Shown: piece by piece, positions 28,530 to 42,033 of the stretch | How the letters are laid out: every line of letters starts with the position of its first letter | How positions within the stretch are numbered: position 1 is the first letter of the stretch | IMG/VR virus record: IMGVR_UViG_3300009149_000023 | Span: 1-64,000 of that record | Strand: one strand, 5' to 3' | From: a virus | DNA: 64,000 bases | Position numbers and translations under genes: made by a program | The notes under the pieces: generated by a model | The model's input: only the letters and a program-made list of their open reading frames with translations | Databases searched by the model: none | Told to the model about the DNA's origin: nothing

Positions 28530-28883
28530 ATGATGGCTAAATTTTCTTCTGATAATCCTATTATTATTGTAGATAAAGGTGTTATAAATTTAATTCCTAT
28601 ACTAAGGGATGCTGTTATTTTAGTAGCAGTAAAACATCCTGAAAAGGGAAATAAGTATACAGCTCGTATAACTACTACATTAGGAAATACTTACAATCTA
28701 GGCTTATGGGATACAAGAGACGATGCCGAAACTTTTTTGCATGTTTTAGGTGATCTACTTTACGAGTATGCTGAAAATATTCAGAAATCGGAAAACTTTC
28801 CTGAAATGATGATGAAAACAACATCACAATCAGATGATATAGATACTAAGAAATTCTCAAGGATGTTAAGGTTTGATGATTAA
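28530..28883 (+). CDS. Hypothetical protein
   Basis: 117 aa, RBS GAGG. Confidence 0.55.
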   Translation: MMAKFSSDNPIIIVDKGVINLIPILRDAVILVAVKHPEKGNKYTARITTTLGNTYNLGLWDTRDDAETFLHVLGDLLYEYAENIQKSENFPEMMMKTTSQSDDIDTKKFSRMLRFDD

Positions 28884-28988
28884 CTTTAACATATCATATT
28901 CAACAAGTCTGTTGACTCATTCACAATCTTTTTTAAACTTTGTAGATAATTTGCTGCCATTATACAGTTTTTATACAGGAGGTGCATA

Positions 28989-29171
28989 ATGTCTTGGGAA
29001 ACTACTTATATGCTTATGAGGCAAAATAGCTATACGTTTCTATGTGTAGGAGTACTACTAGCTGAATGTGGCTTGTTTTACTGGGCCTTTACATTAAAGC
29101 AGTGTGCGAAGAAAGAAGCTAGACTAGTTGAACAAGCACTTGGTAAAGTTAGGAAGATAACTAATGATTAA
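28989..29171 (+). CDS. Small membrane protein
   Basis: RBS GGAGG; hydrophobic FLCVGVLLAECGLFYWAF. Confidence 0.5.
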   Translation: MSWETTYMLMRQNSYTFLCVGVLLAECGLFYWAFTLKQCAKKEARLVEQALGKVRKITND

Positions 29172-29445
29172 TTTTCTAAAACTTAAGTGCAGGTTCGCGG
29201 AGATGGTTAATTTGAGGCTTTTACTAGAACAATGTGTCTCTATTACGAAACAAACATCAAACCACGACTCTGTACCCATAATAGTTTGTTATCTTCCAGG
29301 AAATGGTAATCAAGTATTTTACTATGAAAGTCACCAAGAGAATCTGCGTGACGCTGACTATGACAGATTATTCATGTATTTAAATGACATACAAGATACA
29401 AAAGAAAAACAACTCACTAGAAAATTAAATATGGAAGATAATTGA
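29164..29445 (+). CDS. Hypothetical protein
   Basis: 93 aa, overlapping neighbours. Confidence 0.5.
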   Translation: MINFLKLKCRFAEMVNLRLLLEQCVSITKQTSNHDSVPIIVCYLPGNGNQVFYYESHQENLRDADYDRLFMYLNDIQDTKEKQLTRKLNMEDN

Positions 29446-29453
29446 GGTAGTTT

Positions 29454-29714
29454 ATGAAAGTTAGAACAGGTTTTGTTTCTAATAGTAGTTCTGCTAGTTT
29501 TGTGATAGAAGATTTTACTTACCATATAACAGTTGAGCAAACCTATGCGCTTCTTAACTGTCATGATAAAATAAACGATTGTTGGGAAGTAAATGTAAGA
29601 ACAGGAGAGCGTCCTGAACTTAGAGGACACACTTTTATGGATAACGGGGACATGAGTCAATTTATGAATAAGATAAAAATACCTAAAGAATGCGTAGAGT
29701 GGGATGAAGACTAG
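29454..29714 (+). CDS. Conserved small protein of the MKxRxGFVSNSSS family (unknown function)
   Basis: MKVRTGFVSNSSSASF N-terminal motif, RBS GAGG. Confidence 0.75.
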   Translation: MKVRTGFVSNSSSASFVIEDFTYHITVEQTYALLNCHDKINDCWEVNVRTGERPELRGHTFMDNGDMSQFMNKIKIPKECVEWDED

Positions 29715-29973
29715 TAACTTTAATTTCTTGCATCAAAGACAAATTGACTATACGTTTCAGCCTGTATTGTTTGGCAGAAGGGAGTCTGCTTTCACTGTCC
29801 TTTACTCATACAGTAGAACTTTTCATAAAAGAAAAATATTAACAAAAAGGTACTTTAGCCAGTTCACATTACTAAATAGAAAAGAAATAATGCATATAGA
29901 AAAGAGAAAGGATAATTGGTTACATACTTGTTTATTTTTTGTGAGGTTTAACGATGAAAGATGTTTGCCATGA
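29704..29973 (+). CDS. Small hypothetical protein
   Basis: 89 aa, overlaps both neighbours. Confidence 0.4.
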   Translation: MKTSNFNFLHQRQIDYTFQPVLFGRRESAFTVLYSYSRTFHKRKILTKRYFSQFTLLNRKEIMHIEKRKDNWLHTCLFFVRFNDERCLP

Positions 29974-30244
29974 TTGTATCCTACAACGTTATCTACTTAA
30001 ATCTGCAAAACATATAATGCCTGATACAACTGGACAGTGGGATGTAGTAATTGCTAAACCTTATAGTCCAGGTAATCCCGAGGAAGATGCAGAACTTACA
30101 CGTATTGTTAATAGAGAATGTTTTTTAAATACGATGTTTTCAGGAGTTATACAAGAAGTGATTACATATAGAAACGGAACTAAAATTACAGTAATAGAAC
30201 CCCGATTAGCTGTGAGGAGTATACATTGTCAACTACTCAAATAA
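29954..30244 (+). CDS. Small hypothetical protein
   Basis: 96 aa, RBS GAGG. Confidence 0.5.
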   Translation: MKDVCHDCILQRYLLKSAKHIMPDTTGQWDVVIAKPYSPGNPEEDAELTRIVNRECFLNTMFSGVIQEVITYRNGTKITVIEPRLAVRSIHCQLLK

Positions 30245-30573
30245 AGCCACGTGAGCAAATGAGTTTTATAGGAACGAATGATACACCTAGAGACTTTTGT
30301 CATATTATTACTGCAATATGTAAACCATGGTGGGTACGTAATCATCTTCGGTATGCTGTGGAACCAAGTTATACAGGAAGTGACTATGGTTTTTCTACAT
30401 TCTCTTCAAATGATCAACATATACTTGCAGCAGCTGATTGTTATTGTTTTGGTAATAGAGTTGAGATAAGGAGTTATGATTTTAATGAAGCTTATTCGAG
30501 GAATGAGTATGATTGCAAACCAGCTAATAGTCGCATAAGTTGGATAACGGAAAGAAGGTATATATGGTCATAG
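30226..30573 (+). CDS. Small hypothetical protein
   Basis: TTG start with RBS GAGGAG. Confidence 0.45.
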   Translation: MSTTQIKPREQMSFIGTNDTPRDFCHIITAICKPWWVRNHLRYAVEPSYTGSDYGFSTFSSNDQHILAAADCYCFGNRVEIRSYDFNEAYSRNEYDCKPANSRISWITERRYIWS

Positions 30574-30827
30574 CTTCGACTGATGTTTCATTGTTTCCTA
30601 CATGTAACATATCACGACAAGAATCTTCTCAACGATATTTAATAAGCTGTTTTTTACAAGCACGTGTTAATCGTCAGCAAGAATGGTTTAACCATGAGGA
30701 GCATTGCATTATGTATAGACGACTGTTTGGTTCAACCCGCCATCGGCTTATTTTAAGCAGTGTTAAAGGTGGCTATACACTAATAACATCTATATTTAAT
30801 AATGAGGGGAAGCGCGAGTATTTATGA
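30540..30827 (+). CDS. Small hypothetical protein
   Basis: ORF in tightly packed array; true start may be ATG near 30564. Confidence 0.4.
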   Translation: MDNGKKVYMVIASTDVSLFPTCNISRQESSQRYLISCFLQARVNRQQEWFNHEEHCIMYRRLFGSTRHRLILSSVKGGYTLITSIFNNEGKREYL

Positions 30828-31041
30828 ATGACATTGACAATCTTACATTTTTTAAATCCTTCTTTGTTCTAAATATGAACTAACACATTTTAGGAAGGTA
30901 AGGGCTATGAATACTAGATGTATAGAATTGAGTTGTGACACAGCAGCTGAAGCCCTCATAAGTTTTTATATATTTTCACATTCTTGTTTCATTATAGACA
31001 AGGGTGAAAAAAGCTCGATAGCACGAAGAAGGTTTTTATGA
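30824..31041 (+). pseudogene. Frameshifted paralog of the 31038..31265 gene
   Basis: MNDIDNLTFFK... stops early; the -1 frame reads ...CDTAAEALISFYIFSHSCFIIDKGEKSSIARRRFL, paralleling YDTAAEALISFYIFSHAAYIVEWCDKRAVEQRRFL. Confidence 0.6.
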
Positions 31042-31199
31042 ATGAAATTAACATAGACTACTTTACTGTAAAGTTTCAGAATGAGGATCGAAAATTGATA
31101 TATTTTAAAAGGGGACGAAGTTTTGAACATAACTGTCATACAGCAATTCTTTATGATACAGCAGCTGAAGCCCTCATAAGTTTTTATATATTTTCACAT
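30940..31199 (+). repeat. Perfect 42-bp direct repeat (30940-30981 and 31158-31199)
   Basis: ACAGCAGCTGAAGCCCTCATAAGTTTTTATATATTTTCACAT occurs twice, 218 bp apart. Confidence 0.9.
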
Positions 31200-31265
31200 G
31201 CAGCTTATATCGTTGAATGGTGTGACAAGCGTGCAGTAGAACAAAGGAGGTTTTTATGGGTTTAA
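31038..31265 (+). CDS. Small hypothetical protein
   Basis: 75 aa; has an adjacent degenerate paralog. Confidence 0.55.
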   Translation: MNEINIDYFTVKFQNEDRKLIYFKRGRSFEHNCHTAILYDTAAEALISFYIFSHAAYIVEWCDKRAVEQRRFLWV

Positions 31266-31807
31266 AAATAGCAAAGCTTTCTGAGAATTTTTATCAGAAA
31301 GAGGAATTACGATTCATTAAATACTGTTGCCAGAAATACTTAGATAAGAATCCTGGCTGGAGAGATGAGTTTGACGAACAATTTCATATTAGATTTTGTC
31401 ATCATATGTGTACATGTTGGATGGATGATAAATGGTTTGATGATGAAAACTTCCTGATACGTATGATGGGTATGTTATTTTGCGGCGTTCCAAGAATTGT
31501 TAATAACAAAGAAAGAGCTATGCAAGTATTGTCGGAGCTCTATAGCTTAACGCAGGATAGTTTAATTACCTTATCAGAATTAATAGGTGAATTATCCTAT
31601 AGAGTAGTAGAGGATCGTAAAGAGTTTAAGTTTCATGATTTGAATACTTACTACCTTAACAGTAGATTTGAATATATTTTTGAGATAGTAAAAACTCCTG
31701 CAATAGTTAGAGTACTTACTTTCCTAAAACCATACAATGAGCAAATGCATAAGATAGTAAAAAACGAACTCATAAAGGAAAGTGATAATGAGGTTATAGG
31801 AGCATGA
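31256..31807 (+). CDS. Hypothetical protein
   Basis: 183 aa, RBS AAGGAGG. Confidence 0.6.
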   Translation: MGLKIAKLSENFYQKEELRFIKYCCQKYLDKNPGWRDEFDEQFHIRFCHHMCTCWMDDKWFDDENFLIRMMGMLFCGVPRIVNNKERAMQVLSELYSLTQDSLITLSELIGELSYRVVEDRKEFKFHDLNTYYLNSRFEYIFEIVKTPAIVRVLTFLKPYNEQMHKIVKNELIKESDNEVIGA

Positions 31808-32073
31808 CTAAATCAATCTTTAACCATATCTCACACTCCTATATATTTCAGAATACTGCATTAAGTCAAAAGAAGTTTTCTGAAAGGATAGTAACAAGTT
31901 ACCCACACCATAGAAAAAGAACAGTAATCTTAGAGCTCACATTACATCAGATGATTATTGCTTATGCCTATCAATTTTTGTTTACTATTAGATGGTTTCC
32001 TTTAAAAGACCCTCGTCACTTAAACATAAGTCTCCTAAGGCCACACCTCTACAACTGGAAACACACTAAGTAG
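31804..32073 (+). CDS. Small hypothetical protein
   Basis: 89 aa, ATGA overlap, RBS AGGAG. Confidence 0.45.
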   Translation: MTKSIFNHISHSYIFQNTALSQKKFSERIVTSYPHHRKRTVILELTLHQMIIAYAYQFLFTIRWFPLKDPRHLNISLLRPHLYNWKHTK

Positions 32074-32117
32074 CCGTTTTGTATTAATATCTTATACATA
32101 AAGGGAGGGTTCATGAA

Positions 32118-32507
32118 ATGGCTTTAGGGTCCCACATAATAGTTGATTTAGAAAATTGCGACAAAGCTTTGCTTAACGATGCTACCTTTATTGAACAACT
32201 TCTAAAAGACGCTGTAGTTGTAGCAGGTGCTACCGAGTTAAATACTTATGTACACTCATTTAATCCGCAAGGTATAACGGGTGCTACTGTTTTAGCTGAG
32301 TCACATATCACTATACATACTTTTCCAGAGTTAGGCGTAGCTTGTTTAGACGCTTTTACTTGTGGAGATCATACCAAACCACAAGCAGCTATTGATCATA
32401 TGGCTAAAGCATTGAAAGGAACGATGAATGAAATAACTGGTCTTACTAGAGGGAAAGATTTTAAGTTTCTTACCGAAGAAGAAAGGAATGCTATAGTTTA
32501 TGACTAA
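32118..32507 (+). CDS. speD: S-adenosylmethionine decarboxylase proenzyme; frame continues past TAA to 32609 as an HTH
   Basis: GSHIIVDL, HSFNPQGITG, autocleavage LAESHITIHTFPE, LDAFTCG. Confidence 0.95.
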   Translation: MALGSHIIVDLENCDKALLNDATFIEQLLKDAVVVAGATELNTYVHSFNPQGITGATVLAESHITIHTFPELGVACLDAFTCGDHTKPQAAIDHMAKALKGTMNEITGLTRGKDFKFLTEEERNAIVYD

Positions 32508-32609
32508 GTACGAACTCTTAGGAAACAGGGTGTTAAGAGAAAAGACATTGCTAAGAAATTTAATATGCGTTATGAGATGATTTGGGCTATTTGCAAGGAT
32601 ACTACATAA
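32508..32609 (+). other. In-frame HTH-coding extension beyond the speD TAA
   Basis: LTEEERNAIVYD*VRTLRKQGVKRKDIAKKFNMRYEMIWAICKDTT*; ends exactly at the next gene's RBS. Confidence 0.65.
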
Positions 32610-32619
32610 AGGAGCACAC

Positions 32620-32979
32620 ATGACTGACCACTCACTTTCTTATAGTGAAAAAGATGGCTGCCTAATCTTTTCACTACAGGGGCCTCTTAATTATATTTCC
32701 TGTACTGTGCTAGAATCACAAAAACTTTACTTTGTTGAGAAAGCCGTGGAAGATAAAGTAAAAGCAATAATTATTGATTTTAGTGCTGTAGGCTATGTGG
32801 ATAGTGCAGGTATCTCTGTTTTGCTACAATACTACGCAGTTTGTAAAGATTTAAACATACCGTTAGCATTAATTTCAATGAATTCAATAGTATACAAAGT
32901 CTTTCGAATAACTAATTTAAATCGACTTTTCTTAATTACCAAGACTTATTCTGAAGCAATAGAATCCATTAATCAGTAG
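32620..32979 (+). CDS. STAS-domain anti-sigma-factor antagonist (SpoIIAA/RsbV-like)
   Basis: LQGPLNY, IIIDFSAVGYVDSAGISVL (phospho-Ser motif), VYKVFRITNLNRLFLI..TYSEAI. Confidence 0.9.
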   Translation: MTDHSLSYSEKDGCLIFSLQGPLNYISCTVLESQKLYFVEKAVEDKVKAIIIDFSAVGYVDSAGISVLLQYYAVCKDLNIPLALISMNSIVYKVFRITNLNRLFLITKTYSEAIESINQ

Positions 32980-32995
32980 TTTCTCCTCATAACGT

Positions 32996-33012
32996 AAAAA
33001 CACAACAATTGA
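32996..33012 (+). promoter_or_regulatory. Candidate phage-RNAP promoter motif AAAAACACAACAATTGA
   Basis: Intergenic, upstream of the tail-fibre operon; followed by small hairpin AAGTAGTAC-ACTTTA-GTACTACTT. Confidence 0.65.
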
Positions 33013-33065
33013 AGTAGTACACTTTAGTACTACTTTTTCTGTGTTTATTCAAGGAGGTTTACCTT

Positions 33066-33476
33066 ATGCCAGCAAGAGAATTTAACAAAGAGAAGTTAGC
33101 AGCTTACTCTAAAAAGAAGCTTCATCCCCGTCACATCTATTCAGAAATCACATTCGACATTGAAAAGTTACCTGAGGACATAGGTAAAGGTTATCAGGGA
33201 ATACTACTGTCTGACGGGTTTCCTATTATACACATTTCATACTTTGATTTCTTAGGACGTGTTGAGAAGAAAGCAGATGCTACGAAGTATATGACATACA
33301 TCACAGAAAAGTATAAAAGATTGGATGAAGTTTCTATTACAACTTGGGAGCTTCGCTCTCTTGTAGATGCAAAAGAACTTAGTCAAAAATTAATAGATGA
33401 GTTGCTTGATTCATATGTAATGTATTTGAGACTGCAAGTACAGTATAAACCAGAAGCTGAACTTAGTAATGCATAA
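33066..33476 (+). CDS. Hypothetical protein
   Basis: 136 aa, RBS AAGGAGG. Confidence 0.6.
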   Translation: MPAREFNKEKLAAYSKKKLHPRHIYSEITFDIEKLPEDIGKGYQGILLSDGFPIIHISYFDFLGRVEKKADATKYMTYITEKYKRLDEVSITTWELRSLVDAKELSQKLIDELLDSYVMYLRLQVQYKPEAELSNA

Positions 33477-33496
33477 TATAAAGGAGGAATACCTCG

Positions 33497-35635
33497 ATGT
33501 CTGACCAGAGTGCAATCCAACACAGATATCTAGATCCATTTGAAAAATTAACATCGGATACTACTAACAGGATTCTGATGGCTGTCTACCCAGACGGCAA
33601 AGGTTTGAAGACGGGACTAGAACTTTCAATTAACGGAACTGACCCTAGAGTAGTTGATGTTACACAAGGTGTAGCAATTAAGGACTTTGTAGTTATCAAC
33701 TACTTTGCGGACTTTACTATTACGTTCGATGAAGCAGTAGTACCTGATGATTACTATGTAGTTGTTCTGGAGTATAGATATCAGAAGATGTCTCCTCCTC
33801 CAATAGCAATTGTTAAAATCATTGAAGCAGCTGATTACTCTCCTTTATTTCATATTGTATTAGGAGTACTTCATGTAGCTGGTAACCAGATTGTAGGAAT
33901 TACCAACCAGCATCCAACTATTCCTGAAATAGTAAGACCTGCTGCCGCATTAAGTGATCATAATTCACTTCCAAACCTTCAGGGTGGCCTTGCAGTAAGT
34001 GAATACTATCATTTGACACAAGCTGAGTATGCAATAGTTCATCAATTGTTTTTAGATGGACAGTTAGATCATAACGAACTAACAGGCATTCAAGGTGGTG
34101 CTCCTGGTTCAGGTGGAAGTCCTGGAGAAAGATATCATCTAACATTATGGGAACATGATCATGTACAGCAAGCTCTTGCAGGAACTTGGAAGGTTCCTTT
34201 TGCTGACAAGCTAGATGATCATCCTGCTGCAGATTTTTCTTTAGTAACACATACTCATATACATAATAGTTTGTCAGATTTACAAGGCGGTAATGGTACA
34301 GATGAGTTTTATCACTTTACAGTTGACGAACATTCCGATCTTCAGGGTGTACTTGATGGAACCTTTGCAATAGACGATTCCTTACGACTTGGTGGAAAGC
34401 TTCCTAGTGAGTATGCAGATGCTATTCATAACCATGTGCATAATACATTGGACAATCTGCAGGGAGGGAATGGTACGGATGAGTTCTACCACTTCACTGC
34501 CTCAGAGCATGTTAATATCCTTGGGGTCCTTTCAGGCTCTTATAAAGCGTCTGATGCTGACTTACTTGATGGATTAGATTCTAGTGCATTTGCATTAGCT
34601 GTTCATACACATGTGCATAATGATCAGGTTGATTTACAAGGCGGCATATCTACTGAAAGATATCATTTAACATTAGCAAGCTATAATAATTTGCAAGGAT
34701 TGATTGCAGGAACTATCTCAGTTCCTAATGCAGACAAACTTGACGGCTATGACTCAACAGATTTTGCAACAGCAACTCATACACATACTCACAATAGTCT
34801 TTCCAACCTTCAAGGTGGTAATACTACTGAACGTTATCACGTGTATAGTAATTGGTACAATGCTATGCAGAATGCGACAACACCTTCAAGTACAAATCCA
34901 TTTATGACTATAAATGATTTGTCAGCTATCCAGCATAATGCTATTGGTGGTCTACAAGGTGGAACAACTAATCAGTATTATCATTTCACACAGGCACAGC
35001 ATACTGGCTTAACTGGCGGTGGAGATGCTTCTGCTTATCATAATCACAATACATGTTATTACACTAAAGCAGTAGCTGACAGCAGATACTTAAGAGTAGA
35101 TGGTTTTAATCCGATGCAAGGAAACCTTAACATGGGTAACAATCGCGTGCAGTATGTTGCTACTCCTGTAAGTTCTACTGACGGTGTAAACAAAGCGTAT
35201 GTTGATGGTTGGACTCCTTCAGCGATTTGTCATAATGAATTGACTAACATTCAGGGCGGTACATCAACAGAAAGATACCATATTAGATTAAATCAATATA
35301 ATATGCTCACAAACTCTAATGGAACTGTTGACGATGCTTCAACAATGCATCATCACGATAGTTGTTATTATACTAAGACAACTTCTGATGGAAGGTATCT
35401 CTTTGCAGCCGGTGGCTCAATGACAGGAACTCTAAATGCAAATAATAACAGAATTTGCGGACTTCCTTCATCACCTCTTACTGCAACAGAAGCTGTTTCT
35501 AAAGCATGGGTTGATTCCTTAGCAGGTGTTCCAACAGGAGCTGTTGTAGGTAAACAAACTAACGACGGCTTAACAGGTTTCGCAGCATTAAACATTCAAG
35601 ACAGTGCCGGAATGTGGTTGTACCAGAAATCATAG
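33497..35635 (+). CDS. Tail fibre 1 with His-rich HN.L..LQGG...YH repeats
   Basis: Repeats HxHxHNxLxxLQGGxxxExYH, ADxLDG motifs, MQGNLNMGNNRV..VATP...DGVNKAYVD fibre motifs. Confidence 0.8.
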   Translation: MSDQSAIQHRYLDPFEKLTSDTTNRILMAVYPDGKGLKTGLELSINGTDPRVVDVTQGVAIKDFVVINYFADFTITFDEAVVPDDYYVVVLEYRYQKMSPPPIAIVKIIEAADYSPLFHIVLGVLHVAGNQIVGITNQHPTIPEIVRPAAALSDHNSLPNLQGGLAVSEYYHLTQAEYAIVHQLFLDGQLDHNELTGIQGGAPGSGGSPGERYHLTLWEHDHVQQALAGTWKVPFADKLDDHPAADFSLVTHTHIHNSLSDLQGGNGTDEFYHFTVDEHSDLQGVLDGTFAIDDSLRLGGKLPSEYADAIHNHVHNTLDNLQGGNGTDEFYHFTASEHVNILGVLSGSYKASDADLLDGLDSSAFALAVHTHVHNDQVDLQGGISTERYHLTLASYNNLQGLIAGTISVPNADKLDGYDSTDFATATHTHTHNSLSNLQGGNTTERYHVYSNWYNAMQNATTPSSTNPFMTINDLSAIQHNAIGGLQGGTTNQYYHFTQAQHTGLTGGGDASAYHNHNTCYYTKAVADSRYLRVDGFNPMQGNLNMGNNRVQYVATPVSSTDGVNKAYVDGWTPSAICHNELTNIQGGTSTERYHIRLNQYNMLTNSNGTVDDASTMHHHDSCYYTKTTSDGRYLFAAGGSMTGTLNANNNRICGLPSSPLTATEAVSKAWVDSLAGVPTGAVVGKQTNDGLTGFAALNIQDSAGMWLYQKS

Positions 35636-35646
35636 GAGTAAGATAG

Positions 35647-38600
35647 ATGCCATCCCAAGACCTAATCCAAAGAAGGTCTTTAGACTACAAACAGCGAGTT
35701 ATATCAGATACAGTAAACTTAAAGTTTGCAGCATTAACAGTCTGGCCTGACAATGTTGTAATAGATGGTTTTGAACCAATTAAACTATCCAATACTAAGC
35801 TGAAAATTACTCCTGGTTATGGTTTAAAGGACCGTGTACTCATAACGTACATAGACAAGGTAGAAATAGATACTACCTTGCTTGCTGACGCAGATTACTG
35901 CGTGGTAATGCATTACGAACGGGATTTGGTAGAGCCGCCAAACGCTGCTGAAATAAAAACAATTACTTTAGCTGAATATCAAGCTAATAGCACTAAGTAT
36001 GTGTTCTTAGCATATCTTGAAGTAGTTAATGGTTTAATTGTTACTTTGCTAGATCATCATCCTACCATCAGTACCATCAGAGTTCCTAGATGGGGACACT
36101 CAGAACTATCAGGTCTCCAAGGTGGTAAGGTAACATAAAATGAATACTATCATTTATCTGAGGCTGAGCATACAGCCTTATCCTCTTTAGTTGTTTCTTC
36201 TACTTTAGATCACAATGCTGACCTTTCTAACATTCAAGGTGGAGACGTTGATGAATATTATCATTTTCTAGCAGATGAAGGGCTAGGCATCAGTGCTATT
36301 TTGTCAGACGATCAAGTTGCTTGGCATGCTAATTTTATCTATACAGATTTAGGCGGTTTTGTAAACGCTGACAAATTAGGGACATTATCTTCAACAGATT
36401 TAGCATTAGCTGTTCATACACATGAGCATAAAAGCCTTTCAGATCTACAAGGCGGTGTTGCGGATGAGTATTACCATTTTGATCAAACAGAACATGCAGG
36501 CTTACAAACTATACTGACATCCTCTGTTGTAGAAAATACTGAAAAGCTTGGAGGAAGATTAGCTAGTGATTTCGCATTAGCAATACACAATCATCAACAC
36601 TATAATTTATTAAATGTTCAAGGCGGTGCTGCTTTTCAGCAATTCCATCTTTCATTGAATGATAGAAATAGTATAAATGCTATTGCTAATGAAACTGTGC
36701 CTTTTCCTAATGTAGACAAGCTAGACGGAAAGGACTCAACTGGTTTTGCATTAGCAGAACATGTGCATAGCCATACTACTTCTTTTACAGGAAAGCAAGG
36801 TGGGACAACTAATCAGTATTATCATGTTAAGGCATCTTCTATCTCTTTCATAGCGAATGTTATTTCAGGAGCGCAGAAGATTCCTAACGCTGATCTTATA
36901 AATGGTAAGACAGCGGCAGATTTCGCCTTCTCAGGCCATACACATAATCATGGCAATATTAATAATACGCAAGGTGGCGTGTCTGGACAGAAATATCACC
37001 TTACTAAAAACTTTTATGATTCGTTAAGTGCTTCCAACAGTCCGAGTGCAACTAATGTTTTATTAACTAAATCTTTTGTTAACTCAAACAACCTTCAGCA
37101 TACTAATTTATTAGTGCAAGGTGGTCAGTATCATTTAACTAGTTCACAAGTAAATCTGTTAACTGGTGCTTTTGATGCTAGCTCGTTACACGTTCATGGA
37201 AGTAGCTATTATACAAAAACTTTATCTGAAGGCAAGTATGTTAATGTTACAGGAGATTCTATCCCTGTTAATAGTTTAAGTATTGGTAATCATAAGATTA
37301 CTAATTTAGCTATTCCTGTTAGTTCGAGTGATATAGCTTCAAAAAGTTACGCGGATACTAAACTTGCTGGATCTTTAAATCATAATCAGATAGCAGGTCT
37401 TCAGGGCGGTTCCTTTAATGATTACTATCACATAAAAAGTTCATCACTTACTAATTTAACAACAAGTATTGATGGATCGCTTGAACATTTGCATGCTAGT
37501 AGATACTATAAGAAGTCAGTTGCTGATACTACTTTTATAGATGTCGCTGGTGATACTATAACATCCAATCTTAATATGAATGGGAACAGAATTAATGTTG
37601 CTCCATTAGCAACAGATCCTACTGACATAGTTACTAAAAGCTATGTTGAGGCAGCAGGAGTAATAATTCCTACTGGCACATTGCTAAGACATACATCTAA
37701 CAATGCTACTGCTATGACTAGTAGTGGTTATGTACAAGTTAATAAAACAATATCTTTCCCTTCTCTAATAGCAGCAGGTTCTGCTGATACTCTTCACAGG
37801 CATGTGTATCCTGTAGGTTTTAGCCAGAAAGGCGAGGCTGCAAGATTAAATAGTTATACTGTTGCTAATAACAGTGCTGACTCTCATGTATTTATTGTAG
37901 TAAAAGAAGACGTCCTTGCCCCGTACGGAGGAATGTTATATCAAGTTTGGTATTGTTATGATGCTAACGTAGCAACAAATTCAGTATCACTTGTGCAGAC
38001 ATTTACAAGTGAGCCTGTTTTCCCCGGACCTGTAAATCCTCCTCCACCTGACCCTAGTTACCCAGTTCCTGCTTTCTTAACATTTGTAAAGATAGCTGGA
38101 AAGTATTATTCTGTATTTGCAAATAGTTTACAAGAAAGCACTGACTTGTTATCATGGACAGTAAAAGCAAGTGTAGGTAACTCGTCAGCGAAGTTAGCAT
38201 ATAACGCTGTAGACAATACTATCGGCATTATCACAGCGGCAGGGCAATTTACTCGATATGATATTAGTGCAGGTACAAAGCTCGGTCCTATAAACATGGG
38301 ACTAGCTGGAACATCTATTGCAAACTTTGATATATTCCCTGCTTTAAGTAATACAGGAAACATTGTAGGATTTTATGTCTATAAAAAGACAACAGGAGAA
38401 ATGATATTTATTAACATACTTAAAACAGGCGCAGCCTTACAGTATAAAAAGGTTTCCTTAGGCGTCACCCCTTCGGCAGGTAATCGTGACTTTACAATGC
38501 TTAACGGAAGTGCAGGACATTTCCATATGATGGGCTATCCAACTACAGGAGGGCTTAATACTATATTAGCTCCTTGCGTTTATACTCCTGGTTATAGTTA

Positions 38601-38865
38601 TGTTACAACATCTGTTGCCATTTCTAATTATGCATCCGCTGGTGTTTCTCAACATTACAGTGGTGGCTCTGCCTACGCTGTAGAAGTTGAACAAGTTGTA
38701 GGGCCTACTGATTACTTTACTTGGATAAAAGTACAAACAACAAAGTTTTCAGGTTCAAGCAATTATTCAGTTCCTGCGGTGTCAATGTCTGTTAGAGCAG
38801 ATACATCAGTTGTTAATGATAGAATGTTACTTGAGCAATCTAATTTTTATTATAAGAAGTTGTGA
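35647..38865 (+). CDS. Tail fibre 2, one reading frame interrupted by a single TAA at 36136-36138
   Basis: ORFs 35647..36138 and 36301..38865 share a frame; the gap translates to NEYYHLSEAEHTAL...QGGDVDEYYHFLADE, collinear with fibre 3; joined length 1072 codons vs 1050 aa for the paralog. Confidence 0.8.
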
Positions 38866-38880
38866 GGGAGGATACACTAA

Positions 38881-41800
38881 ATGAGCGTCGACCAAAGATT
38901 AATACAAGTACGTTCAGTTGATCCACTCCAGGAGATTACATCCGATGGAGTGAACAATAAACTAAAAGCTATAGTGTCTGAGAACAAAGGTGTCTTCAGT
39001 GGCTTTGAGTTTATTCAACTGACACCTACTACTTTCAAAGTAAACCCTGGTATATGTTTGAAAGACTATGTAACTATTAAATATGATGAAGCGGTTACCT
39101 TAGAAATTACCTCCCTTGGTGATGGCTTTCATCACATTGTATTAGAATATGTTTATGAAAAAACTATCCCTTTATATATAGCAGAGATTAAAATAGTAAC
39201 CCCAGCAGAGTATACTGCTGAGCCTGCTAAGTATTTATATTTAGGAACTTTACAGATTGATCTAGCAGCAATTGTTTATTTATCACAAGTATATCCAGCA
39301 GACCCTTCTTTATTTAGAAGAGTACTTTTAACACACAACTCTTATGAAGACTTACAAGGTGGTCAGAAAACTACGGATGAATTTTATCATTTATCTGAAG
39401 CAGAACATACAGCCGTTGGTTCTATGGTTGTTCCTACAGGAATGCCTCATAATGGTCTTGGTCACCTTGAAGGTGGTAATGGCACAGATGAATTTTACCA
39501 CTTTATAGCAAATGAATGGTCAGGTATTGTAGCTGTAATGAATGACGACCAAGCAGCTTGGCATCTTAACCCTCTATACATTGGAGGCAGTTTTGTAAAT
39601 GCCGATAAGCTAGGAACTAAAGATGCAACAGATTTAGCATTAGCTGTTCATACTCATGTGCATAATGACTTAAATACTATTCAAGGTGGAGTAGCAACAG
39701 AAAGATATCATGTTGACGAACAAGAACATATTGACTTGTCTGCTATACTAGCTACACACACTGTGGAGAACACAAGTAAGCTAGGAGGAAGGCTGGACAG
39801 TGACTTTGCTTTAGCAACTCATGTTCATGATCATTCTGGTGTAGAGATTTTAAGTCAGCAAGGCGGACAAGCAAATGAATACTATCATTTATCTGATAGT
39901 CAGTTAGTAACCATATGGGACATAGTACAGGAAACTGAGAAGTTTCCTAATGCTGACAAGCTTAACGGCCACGATTCATCATACTTTGCTTTAGTAGGTC
40001 ATGTACATAGTCATAACGATGAATGGACAAACCTACAAGGTGGACAAGCAAATGAATACTATCATCTAAGTGCAGCTAACTTAACATTCCTTCAAGAAGT
40101 TATCAGTGGAGCCACGAAGGCTCCGAATGCTAATCTACTTGGTGGTTATGATAGTTCTCATTTTGCTCAAGCTAATCATACACATAACCACAGTAACCTG
40201 TTAACTATTCAGGGAGGCATTTCGGGCCAACAGTATCACTTAGACGCAGACTTTTATGATGCTTTAACTAATGCAGCTACCCCGACGGGAACAAACTATT
40301 TATTAACAGGTAGTGACTTTTCTGTAGGAGTCCTTGATCATAATGACTTAACTACTATTCAAGGCGGAAGCTCAACTTATAGAATGCATTTAACACAAGC
40401 TCAACATGGAAGTTTGTCTACAGGTATAACAACGACATTGCATGCACATTCGGCTTATTACAGGAGATCAGAGTCAGATGCTAACTATGTAAACAGAACA
40501 GGAGATACTTTAGCAGCGCTTAATCTCGCTAATCATAGTATTATTGGATTAGCTGCTCCATCTGTTTCTACAGACTTAGCAAACAAACAATATGCTGATA
40601 GTCATTTAGCATCAGCTTTTGATCATAATGCTGTTCAAGACATCCAAGGCGGCATCCCGACTGAAAAATATCACTTTACCTTACAGCAATTTAATGAACT
40701 GACTGGAGTCGCTGTAGTAAGTCAACATGAGCACGATGGAAGATATTACACACAATCATTAAGTGACACTGCTTTTATAAACAGGAATGGTGATATGTTA
40801 ACTGGAACTGTTAACATGAGTAACAATAGAGTTACAACTGTTCCTTATGCATCTGTTGCTACAGACATAGCAAGTAAGCAGTATGTAGAAGATAATGCGG
40901 GCATACTTCCAACAGCGAGTGTATTAAAACATTATAGCAGAAATGCTTCTCCTATGACAGGTAAAAGTTTTGCACATATAAATAAAGCTGATAACTTCTT
41001 TGATAACTTTACTGCAATAGCAACTAAAGCATTTCCTACAACTCCTCCGTGGACTCCAACATCAGTGCAACTAAGCTTTACTTTTTCACAGTATGACGCT
41101 TTTTCTGATTCAACTATTGTTATGGGGTCAGCATTGTCCACTGGACAAGGTTTTGCTTCTTTTGTTCAAAAGATTTCATCGTCCCATACAGTAACAGATA
41201 TCGCAACTGTTAACTATTGGTTATTCTGTTCACCTATTGTTAGACATCCTGCAAACGGAAAGTATTATGTTTTATCTATGGATGATGGCTCAGGCGGTAT
41301 TACGCCTTCTGACAATAATGTTAAACTATTATCATCTACTGATTTAATTAGTTGGAGTGCGGCTGATAGCAATGTATTTACTGGCAACATGACATCCAGC
41401 CCACTGTTCGGTTATCTATTAGCAGAAGGCAATTATATCTATGCTTTAATTTTCACCGGAGGAGGAACTCCGGGCAATTCAGTAAGATTCTATAGCTGGG
41501 ATGTAACTTCCGGTCATGCAAGAACATTATACTTTACACGTTCAGTAGGTGCTGTTACTAAGTTTGATGGATTGTTTAATTTCAACAATGCAGGCTTTAT
41601 GACTACTATTAACAATAAAGTAAGCGTATTCGATACAGCAGGTACTTGGGTTGATATAACAGCTTCTAGTCCTGCGCAAGTTGCTGCTGTTAATAGTAAT
41701 ACACTAGTAACAAATGATTGGTCAGGTTCATCTATACAGTTAGGCGCTTACAACGGTGAATCAACTCCTAACGGTATAACACATATCTTATATTCATCAG

Positions 41801-42033
41801 TAAATGCAATAAACGTTTCTCAGAATATGAGAACAGCTTCATTAGCAACAAGAAGTAATGCTACATACTTTGTGGGGAGACCTAATACAGGTATGGGTGC
41901 TTTAGACTTATATAAGATTTATAGAACCACTACTACACATGCTTTCAAGAGTCCTTTGATGACTAATAATAACTACGCAAGCAATACTCTCGCTCAAAAA
42001 TTCAATAATCAATACTACTATAAGAGGTCATAG
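38881..42033 (+). CDS. Tail fibre 3 with His-rich repeats and distal beta-rich receptor-binding region
   Basis: Same repeat family; distal SSTDLISWS Asp-box-like segment. Confidence 0.8.
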   Translation: MSVDQRLIQVRSVDPLQEITSDGVNNKLKAIVSENKGVFSGFEFIQLTPTTFKVNPGICLKDYVTIKYDEAVTLEITSLGDGFHHIVLEYVYEKTIPLYIAEIKIVTPAEYTAEPAKYLYLGTLQIDLAAIVYLSQVYPADPSLFRRVLLTHNSYEDLQGGQKTTDEFYHLSEAEHTAVGSMVVPTGMPHNGLGHLEGGNGTDEFYHFIANEWSGIVAVMNDDQAAWHLNPLYIGGSFVNADKLGTKDATDLALAVHTHVHNDLNTIQGGVATERYHVDEQEHIDLSAILATHTVENTSKLGGRLDSDFALATHVHDHSGVEILSQQGGQANEYYHLSDSQLVTIWDIVQETEKFPNADKLNGHDSSYFALVGHVHSHNDEWTNLQGGQANEYYHLSAANLTFLQEVISGATKAPNANLLGGYDSSHFAQANHTHNHSNLLTIQGGISGQQYHLDADFYDALTNAATPTGTNYLLTGSDFSVGVLDHNDLTTIQGGSSTYRMHLTQAQHGSLSTGITTTLHAHSAYYRRSESDANYVNRTGDTLAALNLANHSIIGLAAPSVSTDLANKQYADSHLASAFDHNAVQDIQGGIPTEKYHFTLQQFNELTGVAVVSQHEHDGRYYTQSLSDTAFINRNGDMLTGTVNMSNNRVTTVPYASVATDIASKQYVEDNAGILPTASVLKHYSRNASPMTGKSFAHINKADNFFDNFTAIATKAFPTTPPWTPTSVQLSFTFSQYDAFSDSTIVMGSALSTGQGFASFVQKISSSHTVTDIATVNYWLFCSPIVRHPANGKYYVLSMDDGSGGITPSDNNVKLLSSTDLISWSAADSNVFTGNMTSSPLFGYLLAEGNYIYALIFTGGGTPGNSVRFYSWDVTSGHARTLYFTRSVGAVTKFDGLFNFNNAGFMTTINNKVSVFDTAGTWVDITASSPAQVAAVNSNTLVTNDWSGSSIQLGAYNGESTPNGITHILYSSVNAINVSQNMRTASLATRSNATYFVGRPNTGMGALDLYKIYRTTTTHAFKSPLMTNNNYASNTLAQKFNNQYYYKRS

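Follow-up and report, generated by a model that had tools for sequence, protein, structure and literature searches.

Enzymes such as BirA, PutA and NadR, known as trigger enzymes, join a metabolic activity to a helix-turn-helix (HTH), and the state of a metabolite can control transcription. Readthrough of a stop codon, on the other hand, lengthens the coat protein of phage Qbeta by the extension A1, and the codon used there is UGA. Stop codon readthrough has also been described for AMD1, an S-adenosylmethionine (AdoMet) decarboxylase (PMC13025110), and homologues of speD are common in marine phages (PMC9992855), with arginine or ornithine decarboxylase activity among the phage homologues (PMC9992855, PMC10407285). 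The locus described here lies in 64,000 nucleotides of viral DNA, positions 1 to 64,000 of the IMG/VR record IMGVR_UViG_3300009149_000023 (linear, 73,096 bp, of which this stretch is the first 64 kb; 36.4% G+C). The whole stretch is called the window below. In it, a speD-family gene ends with TAA and the same frame continues through 33 codons, predicted to complete an HTH, up to a second stop that adjoins the ribosome-binding site (RBS) of a STAS-domain gene (Table 1). A sequence-only reading of the window had described this arrangement and proposed that the stop is read through, giving a DNA-binding SpeD-HTH protein. Coordinates and translation agree with the arrangement as it was described, and the observation is confirmed; the readthrough interpretation is partly supported.

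The TAA at the end of speD is genuine and, as far as the assemblies tell, fixed in this phage population. Four public runs (X1 to X4) cover parts of positions 32000-36400 in the form of Logan contigs, in which minor alleles are invisible. The speD stop is covered by X1 and X2, which are runs from two studies, while X3 and X4 do not reach it. Record 1 of X1 spans 32000-34413 with three differences from the window (32508 G>C, 32754 T>C and 34279 T>C) and record 8 of X2 spans 32388-32538 with none. The TAA is intact in both, which makes the base-call error considered in the sequence-only reading very unlikely. The protein of 129 amino acids has also been recorded from two contigs. A recent nonsense mutation private to this phage, the other simple alternative raised there, also fares badly, because it must account for the only relative bearing the same SpeD tail, a metagenome contig (L007), which stops at the homologous codon with TGA (YD-TGA compared with YD-TAA), so that a stop at codon 130 is found in one of one tail-bearing relatives. 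The stop is probably older than the split between the window phage and L007.

The gene in front of the stop encodes an ordinary class 1b SpeD-family pyruvoyl decarboxylase of 129 amino acids. The catalytic domain, residues 6-112, is matched by AdoMet_dc (PF02675) over the entire profile (positions 1-107 of 107, E 8.5e-36, 123 bits with a cut-off of 25), and PHROG 3125 matches the product with E 1.6e-33. The AlphaFold2 model has a predicted local distance difference test score (pLDDT) of 91 and matches the Thermotoga maritima AdoMet decarboxylase 1tlu_A in Foldseek with E 2.4e-15; superposition on 1tlu_A gives a template modelling (TM) score of 0.86 on the target over 114 columns. An alignment of 45 homologues shows no variation at residues E61-S62-H63, H67 and C82. 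Their roles were assigned from common knowledge of the family together with PMC10407285, which covers the role of the serine, and the title of the structure 1tmi, "S63A non-processing mutant". From the sequence, AdoMet, arginine and ornithine are all possible substrates. A spermidine synthase gene (speE) was not found in the 73-kb record, for which CheckV estimates a completeness of 25%; the phage may far exceed 73 kb. The C-terminal end of the product is LTEEERNAIVYD, and residues 113-129 (KDFKFLTEEERNAIVYD) form a lineage-specific tail. This tail is more conserved than the enzyme core in comparison with L007, with proportions of changed non-synonymous sites (pN) of 0.14 and 0.25 respectively.

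The 33 codons behind the stop are, judged by their codon usage, good coding sequence. The open length is unremarkable alone, as at this base composition chance alone would leave 33 codons open in about 9% of cases, and 4 of 55 extensions of open reading frames (ORFs) in this genome are as long. The codon-usage score of the extension in the speD frame is 0.258; in-frame windows average 0.341, off-frame windows -0.12 and -0.19. This score corresponds to the 29th percentile of 553 in-frame windows of 33 codons and is reached by 0.27% of 1106 off-frame windows, and the five other frames of the region have negative scores. Coding in antisense or in another frame was considered and rejected on the pattern of changes relative to L007. 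Tandem stops are not significantly enriched after TAA in this genome (23 of 55 extensions have five codons or fewer, counted by eye, and about 35% is expected), and no paralogue of the tail was found elsewhere in it. The sequence-only reading held that the extension has no start of its own. This is correct for the head of the extension; the sole in-frame ATG is at 32565, 14 codons before the end.

The last ten or so residues of SpeD and the extension together form a predicted HTH of the resolvase type. When the last 18 SpeD residues and the extension were used as a read-through query, the best Pfam match was HTH_7 (PF02796) with 22.3 bits (cut-off 23.8) and E 1.4e-4 over profile positions 11-32, and the extension alone gave 17.2 bits and E 5.7e-3. 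PHROG families of HTH proteins and regulators match the same query at E 0.002-0.1. None of six control translations had a Pfam match at E <= 10; the controls were three other in-frame extensions of the genome, two ORFs in the +1 frame and the L007 version with X at the stops. AlphaFold2 places helices at residues 120-136, 141-147 and 152-160, with pLDDT 80-87 for the block and no homologues covering that part, and these helices also appear when the 52-residue tail is folded alone (pLDDT 78.8). In Foldseek the tail comes closest to the HTH domains of the Sin, Tn3 and gamma-delta resolvases, followed by Tc3, NarL and RcsB, with E 0.1-2 overall and 0.1-1 for the resolvases. The first helix, 120-136, crosses codon 130, which places the stop inside it. 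The claim that the stop falls within a recognisable HTH is thereby supported by the HTH_7 likeness and the predicted helix, but the scores stay below curated thresholds.

Comparison with L007 shows which parts of the region are constrained. The SpeD of L007 is 66% identical, is also 129 amino acids long and ends ...INYD before its TGA. A tblastn search with the tail over 246 loci found it in L007 only, with 13 of 17 tail residues identical, and the C-terminus of the next relative (L008/L087, 58%) is a different one. Across speD the proportion of changed synonymous sites (pS) is 0.74, which is saturated, and pN is 0.23. Non-coding DNA can be aligned only at short functional blocks, namely the speD RBS and start, where GGAGGGTTCATGA.ATGGC is kept, and two short motifs in the upstream spacer; the remaining spacer is not kept. 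Because synonymous sites are saturated and spacers cannot be aligned, conservation between the two phages means constraint. The first four codons of the extension show conservative changes only (V/L, R, T/I, L/I). In the last 11 codons (EKIWAICKDFA, in L007 EMIWAICKDTT) 5 of 5.5 synonymous and 4 of 27.5 non-synonymous sites are changed (Fisher p 0.003). Both ends of the extension thus look protein-constrained, which suggests that it has been kept under protein-level selection. Codon usage, the likeness to HTH proteins, the clean controls and this comparison together place the extension above chance.

Constraint at the nucleotide level is also hinted at. Nucleotides around the stop are more conserved between the window and L007 than synonymous sites elsewhere: third positions are identical at 0.40 over codons 1-112 and at 0.73 over codons 113-134, and codons 121-133, a stretch centred on the stop and chosen after inspection, have 12 of 13 in common. 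Either nucleotide-level constraint or a more recent exchange of the segment may lie behind this. X1 also contains a contig whose loose end is the start of the L007 fibre gene. Both phage types seem to be present in one sample, so recombination between them is possible. Past the second stop, L007 keeps 12 of the 13 bases of the block TAAAGGAGCACAC, even though the STAS gene is missing there. The sequence-only reading had looked to homologues for a conserved stop with a conserved HTH behind it. The stop and the two ends of the extension agree with this, but the middle of the extension is scrambled in L007. The simplest reading is that the middle of the HTH and the STAS cassette were lost from L007 in separate events of fairly recent date, and that the extension evolved as protein before.

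Searches for further relatives covered several hundred loci overall. IMG/VR was scanned twice with speD (4 and 101 relatives), as were metagenomes (183 relatives, 80 kept) and genomes (270 relatives, 80 kept). Beyond L007, the SpeD tail was found neither in these scans nor by tblastn over the 246 loci. A tblastn search with the read-through product gave 143 phage records, few of which run past residue 129, and 5783 representative proteins matched speD. A continuous SpeD-HTH frame was found neither in the 246 loci nor in the eight representatives examined among the best 150 of the 5783, chosen because their match passed residue 129 or because they were closest. Word-indexed searches with the tail region, one of them among proteins of 89-286 amino acids, also gave nothing; these are weak negatives since the method needs shared words of five residues and fixed length ranges. 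The main texts of PMC9992855 and PMC10407285 contain no mention of an HTH or of readthrough, and neither they nor the collections searched gave a SpeD joined to an HTH across a stop or otherwise.

Some of the proteins found have other additions to SpeD. The best match of the read-through product past residue 129 (H7) is a long fusion protein whose tail is basic and not an HTH, and another candidate (H37) is an annotated SpeD followed by a separate hypothetical ORF of 47 amino acids; both were rejected. A faecal phage-like scaffold (L001, MT839461.1) has at 813-2480 an ORF of 555 amino acids with a large N-terminal region, a C-terminal SpeD domain and a tail that is basic. It is a SpeD fusion of another kind, without an HTH, and a related protein exists (P0127). 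A DNA search of GenBank phages with positions 31800-33500 returned only six cyanophage speD cores with 71-74% identity, and a degenerate IWAICKD pattern occurs at five places in IMG/VR, none of them related in context.

Low-level readthrough of the speD stop is the explanation favoured here, tentatively and with a likelihood that falls somewhat short of even. A constrained, coding-like extension behind a shared stop is most simply expected if some ribosomes read through, and a single TAA-to-TGA transition from a shared stop accounts for both stops. The genuine stop, the coding-like extension and its constrained ends fit what the sequence-only reading proposed, but no tuned signal was seen, and a number of observations weigh against readthrough. 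Both release factors recognise UAA, which leaks less than any other stop in bacteria. TAA ends 48 of 69 sampled ORFs in this genome, including all the long structural ones, so phage and host terminate well at TAA. No stimulatory RNA structure was found: the 151 nucleotides around the stop fold less well than shuffled versions (z = +1.99), 193 of 200 of which are at least equally stable. The +4 base differs between the window (G), X1 (C) and L007 (T), giving no conserved context, and +4U lowers readthrough in bacteria (PMC5289835). The raised identity of third positions near the stop is the sole hint of a signal. A suppressor tRNA or a phage release factor had been suggested as a possible aid to readthrough, but ARAGORN detected no tRNA gene in the 73,096 bases and no RF-1 domain was found in the record; as this is only about 25% complete, both negatives are weak. 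The tail is known from two lineages only, HTH_7 is matched with a score below the Pfam cut-off and no Foldseek row has E <= 0.001. The L007 extension has a middle part that cannot be aligned in any frame and is interrupted by three further TGA codons and one TAA, and to judge from these stops the L007 lineage does not make the HTH now. Since the tail is better conserved than the core, the product of 129 amino acids appears to be functional on its own. Among four marks of the readthrough class one is present here, the conserved stop, and a leaky stop, context or structure is not. The gene is therefore not filed as proven programmed readthrough, and translation of the HTH is put forward as a proposal. 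The same termination data bear on whether the TAA is an assembly base error or is read as an amino acid in this phage, which is close to refuted. In its favour, the second in-frame TAA of the window (36136-36138) is absent from other assemblies. The speD TAA, however, recurs in contigs of two further runs and its protein has been recorded from two contigs, and reassignment of TAA was rejected on the 48 of 69 ORFs that it ends, the long ORFs that are intact under code 11 and the record without tRNA.

The remaining explanations leave the extension untranslated or have it expressed in another way. A serious contender, although a doubtful one, is that the ancestral gene encoded a continuous SpeD-HTH, that separate recent nonsense mutations hit the same codon in both lineages, and that translation of the extension has ceased. 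This assembly does have nonsense variants, for instance at 36136-36138, where X1 and X4 have TCA, and L007, with the middle of its HTH scrambled and both the STAS gene and an ORF of 136 amino acids absent, shows that the module is dispensable. Data sets of the window type differ by about 0.16% (X1 has seven differences in 4401 bases), and a mutation fixed just before they diverged would have spared the extension. The position of the stop inside helix 1 and not at a domain border looks accidental, and UAA is a poor readthrough codon. Such a history, however, needs two independent hits on one of about 45 HTH codons with nearly identical flanks (TATGACTRANTACGAA), the single transition from a shared stop is a shorter path, and no continuous SpeD-HTH emerged from any of the searches described above. 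If the stop is instead ancestral and the extension has been untranslated ever since, its signals must come from chance or from other constraint, such as an element upstream of STAS or a stop signal. The conserved 3' block, which continues through the second stop into the RBS, could serve STAS expression, the conserved third positions near the first stop point to constraint on nucleotides, and the open frame itself could have arisen by chance. This explanation is nevertheless unlikely, because with saturated synonymous sites and unalignable spacers an untranslated stretch should be random by now, few off-frame windows equal the codon usage of the extension, and the extension alone resembles HTH_7 when none of the controls does. 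The changes in its last 11 codons are concentrated at synonymous sites, which is unexpected for a DNA or RNA signal. Least likely among the explanations that accept the stop is another expression route, either an initiation at the +1-frame ATG at 32500-32502 with a later shift into the speD frame or a tiny ORF from the ATG at 32565. A +1-frame ATG overlaps the speD stop in both phages as ATGACTRA (ATGACTAA in the window, ATGACTGA in L007) and opens ORFs of 26 amino acids in the window (32500-32580) and 47 amino acids in L007 (686-829). The first six residues, MT(K/D)YEL, are common to the two, the purine-rich GAAGAAAGG lies upstream of the 32500 ATG, and L007 has GAGGG six nucleotides before an ATG in the speD frame just ahead of the conserved end. 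Past the six residues, however, the +1-frame ORFs share nothing and match no family, and no slippery heptamer was seen by eye in the sequence. The in-frame ATG of L007 meets a TAA after three codons, and a peptide of 14 residues cannot be an HTH.

If readthrough takes place, a small share of ribosomes would pass the stop by near-cognate decoding and produce a minor SpeD-HTH isoform of 163 residues beside the bulk of the enzyme. Most chains would end at residue 129, and the small remaining share would gain 34 residues that complete the HTH. Self-cleavage at Glu61/Ser62 would leave the alpha chain with both the pyruvoyl group and the C-terminus, and hence with the HTH, and in an oligomer a few extended chains might hold the enzyme on DNA. 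In bacteria nonsense suppression increases with polyamines, as at a UAG on rpoS mRNA in Escherichia coli (PMC7177335), and by analogy a polyamine-dependent yield of the isoform is conceivable. It is improbable, although it would be in line with the suggestion of the sequence-only reading, that an old and kept stop acts as a translational polyamine sensor in which the amount of SpeD-HTH reports polyamines and feeds back on the STAS and tail-fibre genes.

Table 1. Positions of the features at the speD locus, counted from the first letter of the window.
Feature	Position	Strand	Remark
Shine-Dalgarno-like GGGAGGG	32103-32109	+	8 nucleotides 5' of the speD ATG; read from sequence
speD-family gene	32118-32507	+	129 amino acids, ATG start; class 1b pyruvoyl decarboxylase proenzyme
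Ser62 codon TCA	32301-32303	+	Motif LAESHITIH; predicted self-cleavage site and pyruvoyl precursor, role inferred from the family
In-frame TAA ending speD	32505-32507	+	Codon 130; in the middle of predicted helix 120-136
33-codon in-frame extension VRTLRKQGVKRKDIAKKFNMRYEMIWAICKDTT	32508-32606	+	Predicted remainder of a resolvase-type HTH
Second in-frame TAA, end of extension	32607-32609	+	TAA also at the homologous place in L007
AGGAG, RBS of the STAS gene	32610-32614	+	Directly 3' of the extension stop
STAS-domain gene (PF01740)	32620-32979	+	119 amino acids, ATG at 32620; fold family of anti-sigma-factor antagonists
Terminator-like hairpin with T-run	33011-33036	+	After the STAS gene

The STAS assignment is based on a Pfam match over residues 9-113 (E 1.9e-17, 63.4 bits with a cut-off of 22.6), and a scan of IMG/VR with the STAS protein gave no relative. 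A scan for promoters and terminators between speD and STAS gave nothing. As the first terminator-like site comes only after the STAS gene, speD, the extension and STAS are probably in one transcript. L007 at 810-975, which corresponds to 32620-33476 of the window, is without the STAS gene and the ORF of 136 amino acids and keeps the RBS block and a downstream motif, AAACACAACAATT. The difference looks like a cassette deletion in L007 or an insertion in the window phage. A motif AAACACA(ACAATT) is found on both sides of the locus, at 32055-32063 and 33000-33012, and is kept in L007 (at about 230 and 880) amid spacers that cannot be aligned. A role as a promoter or regulatory motif of the phage is possible. 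The region 28883-32118 contains only short and often overlapping ORFs of 60-183 amino acids, one of which (31256-31807) was checked and matches no family, and it looks like an accessory or early-gene region. The record also encodes a portal, a major head protein, a large terminase and an RNA-polymerase-like protein, and megablast of positions 40000-64000 against GenBank phages gave no match.

Downstream, three large consecutive ORFs (33497-35635, 35647-38865 and 38881-42033) contain many repeats of the form QGG-x(4-6)-YH(L/F), the motif of the third being known from a tblastn line only. They probably encode paralogous fibre or receptor-binding proteins. The second of them has the other in-frame TAA of the window, at 36136-36138, within the repeat motif LQGG...YYHLS (LQGGKVT*NEYYHLS). 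Past this stop another 908 codons are open in the frame, the first possible start being a TTG at 36301, and the orthologue in L007 is a single ORF of 1054 amino acids (QGGSIDYKEYYHLS). Contigs of X1 and X4 have C at 36137, giving TCA and thus serine, while X2 does not reach this position. As both read TCA, this TAA is a variant or error private to the window assembly.

Readthrough at speD, if true, would be a rare case in a DNA phage or bacterium of a stop codon behind which a whole domain is added, and would offer a testable model of a metabolite that sets gene expression via termination efficiency. We know of no earlier link between a SpeD enzyme and a DNA-binding module, and this would then be the first. 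If the stop instead marks the recent loss of a continuous protein, an enzyme-HTH fusion would have existed once in this phage group and would now be disappearing, with a STAS neighbour in one lineage. In either case the locus is a warning for annotation, because a seemingly complete speD of 129 amino acids hides a further domain.

The enzyme agrees with class 1b SpeD and its phage homologues in the AdoMet_dc domain over residues 6-112, the ES-H motif, H67, C82 and the fold of the T. maritima protein. It differs from known SpeD by the 17-residue tail shared with one relative and by the in-frame, HTH-coding extension behind the stop; the fusions described in the main texts of PMC9992855 and PMC10407285 are SpeD-SpeD and not SpeD-HTH. 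The tail and extension are most like the C-terminal HTH of serine recombinases (HTH_7), which gave both the best Pfam match and the best Foldseek rows, with TM scores on the query of 0.61-0.69 for the resolvase HTH structures 2r0q, 5cy2, 2gm4 and 1gdt. In contrast to serine recombinases, the HTH here is a predicted one that scores below the curated cut-off and stands without a recombinase domain, and its helix 1 is longer than usual and carries the stop codon.

With readthrough that adds to a protein, as in the Qbeta coat extension A1 and vertebrate AMD1, the locus has in common one frame, a stop, an in-frame extension with conserved ends and a new module that would be present in a minority of chains. 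Unlike in Qbeta, the stop in the window is UAA, it has no conserved context signal and the extended product is only predicted. The AMD1 tail is a ribosome-arrest peptide and not a domain, and as AMD1 and SpeD belong to different enzyme classes any parallel would be convergent. The polyamine modulon of E. coli (the UAG of rpoS and the +1 frameshift of prfB) is similar in that polyamines can set the yield of a stop-interrupted frame (PMC7177335), but the rpoS case depends on the supE suppressor tRNA and UAG, and nothing comparable was found here. The trigger enzymes BirA, PutA and NadR come close in their combination of a metabolic enzyme with an HTH, but they have both parts in one uninterrupted frame, whereas that of speD is interrupted by a stop.

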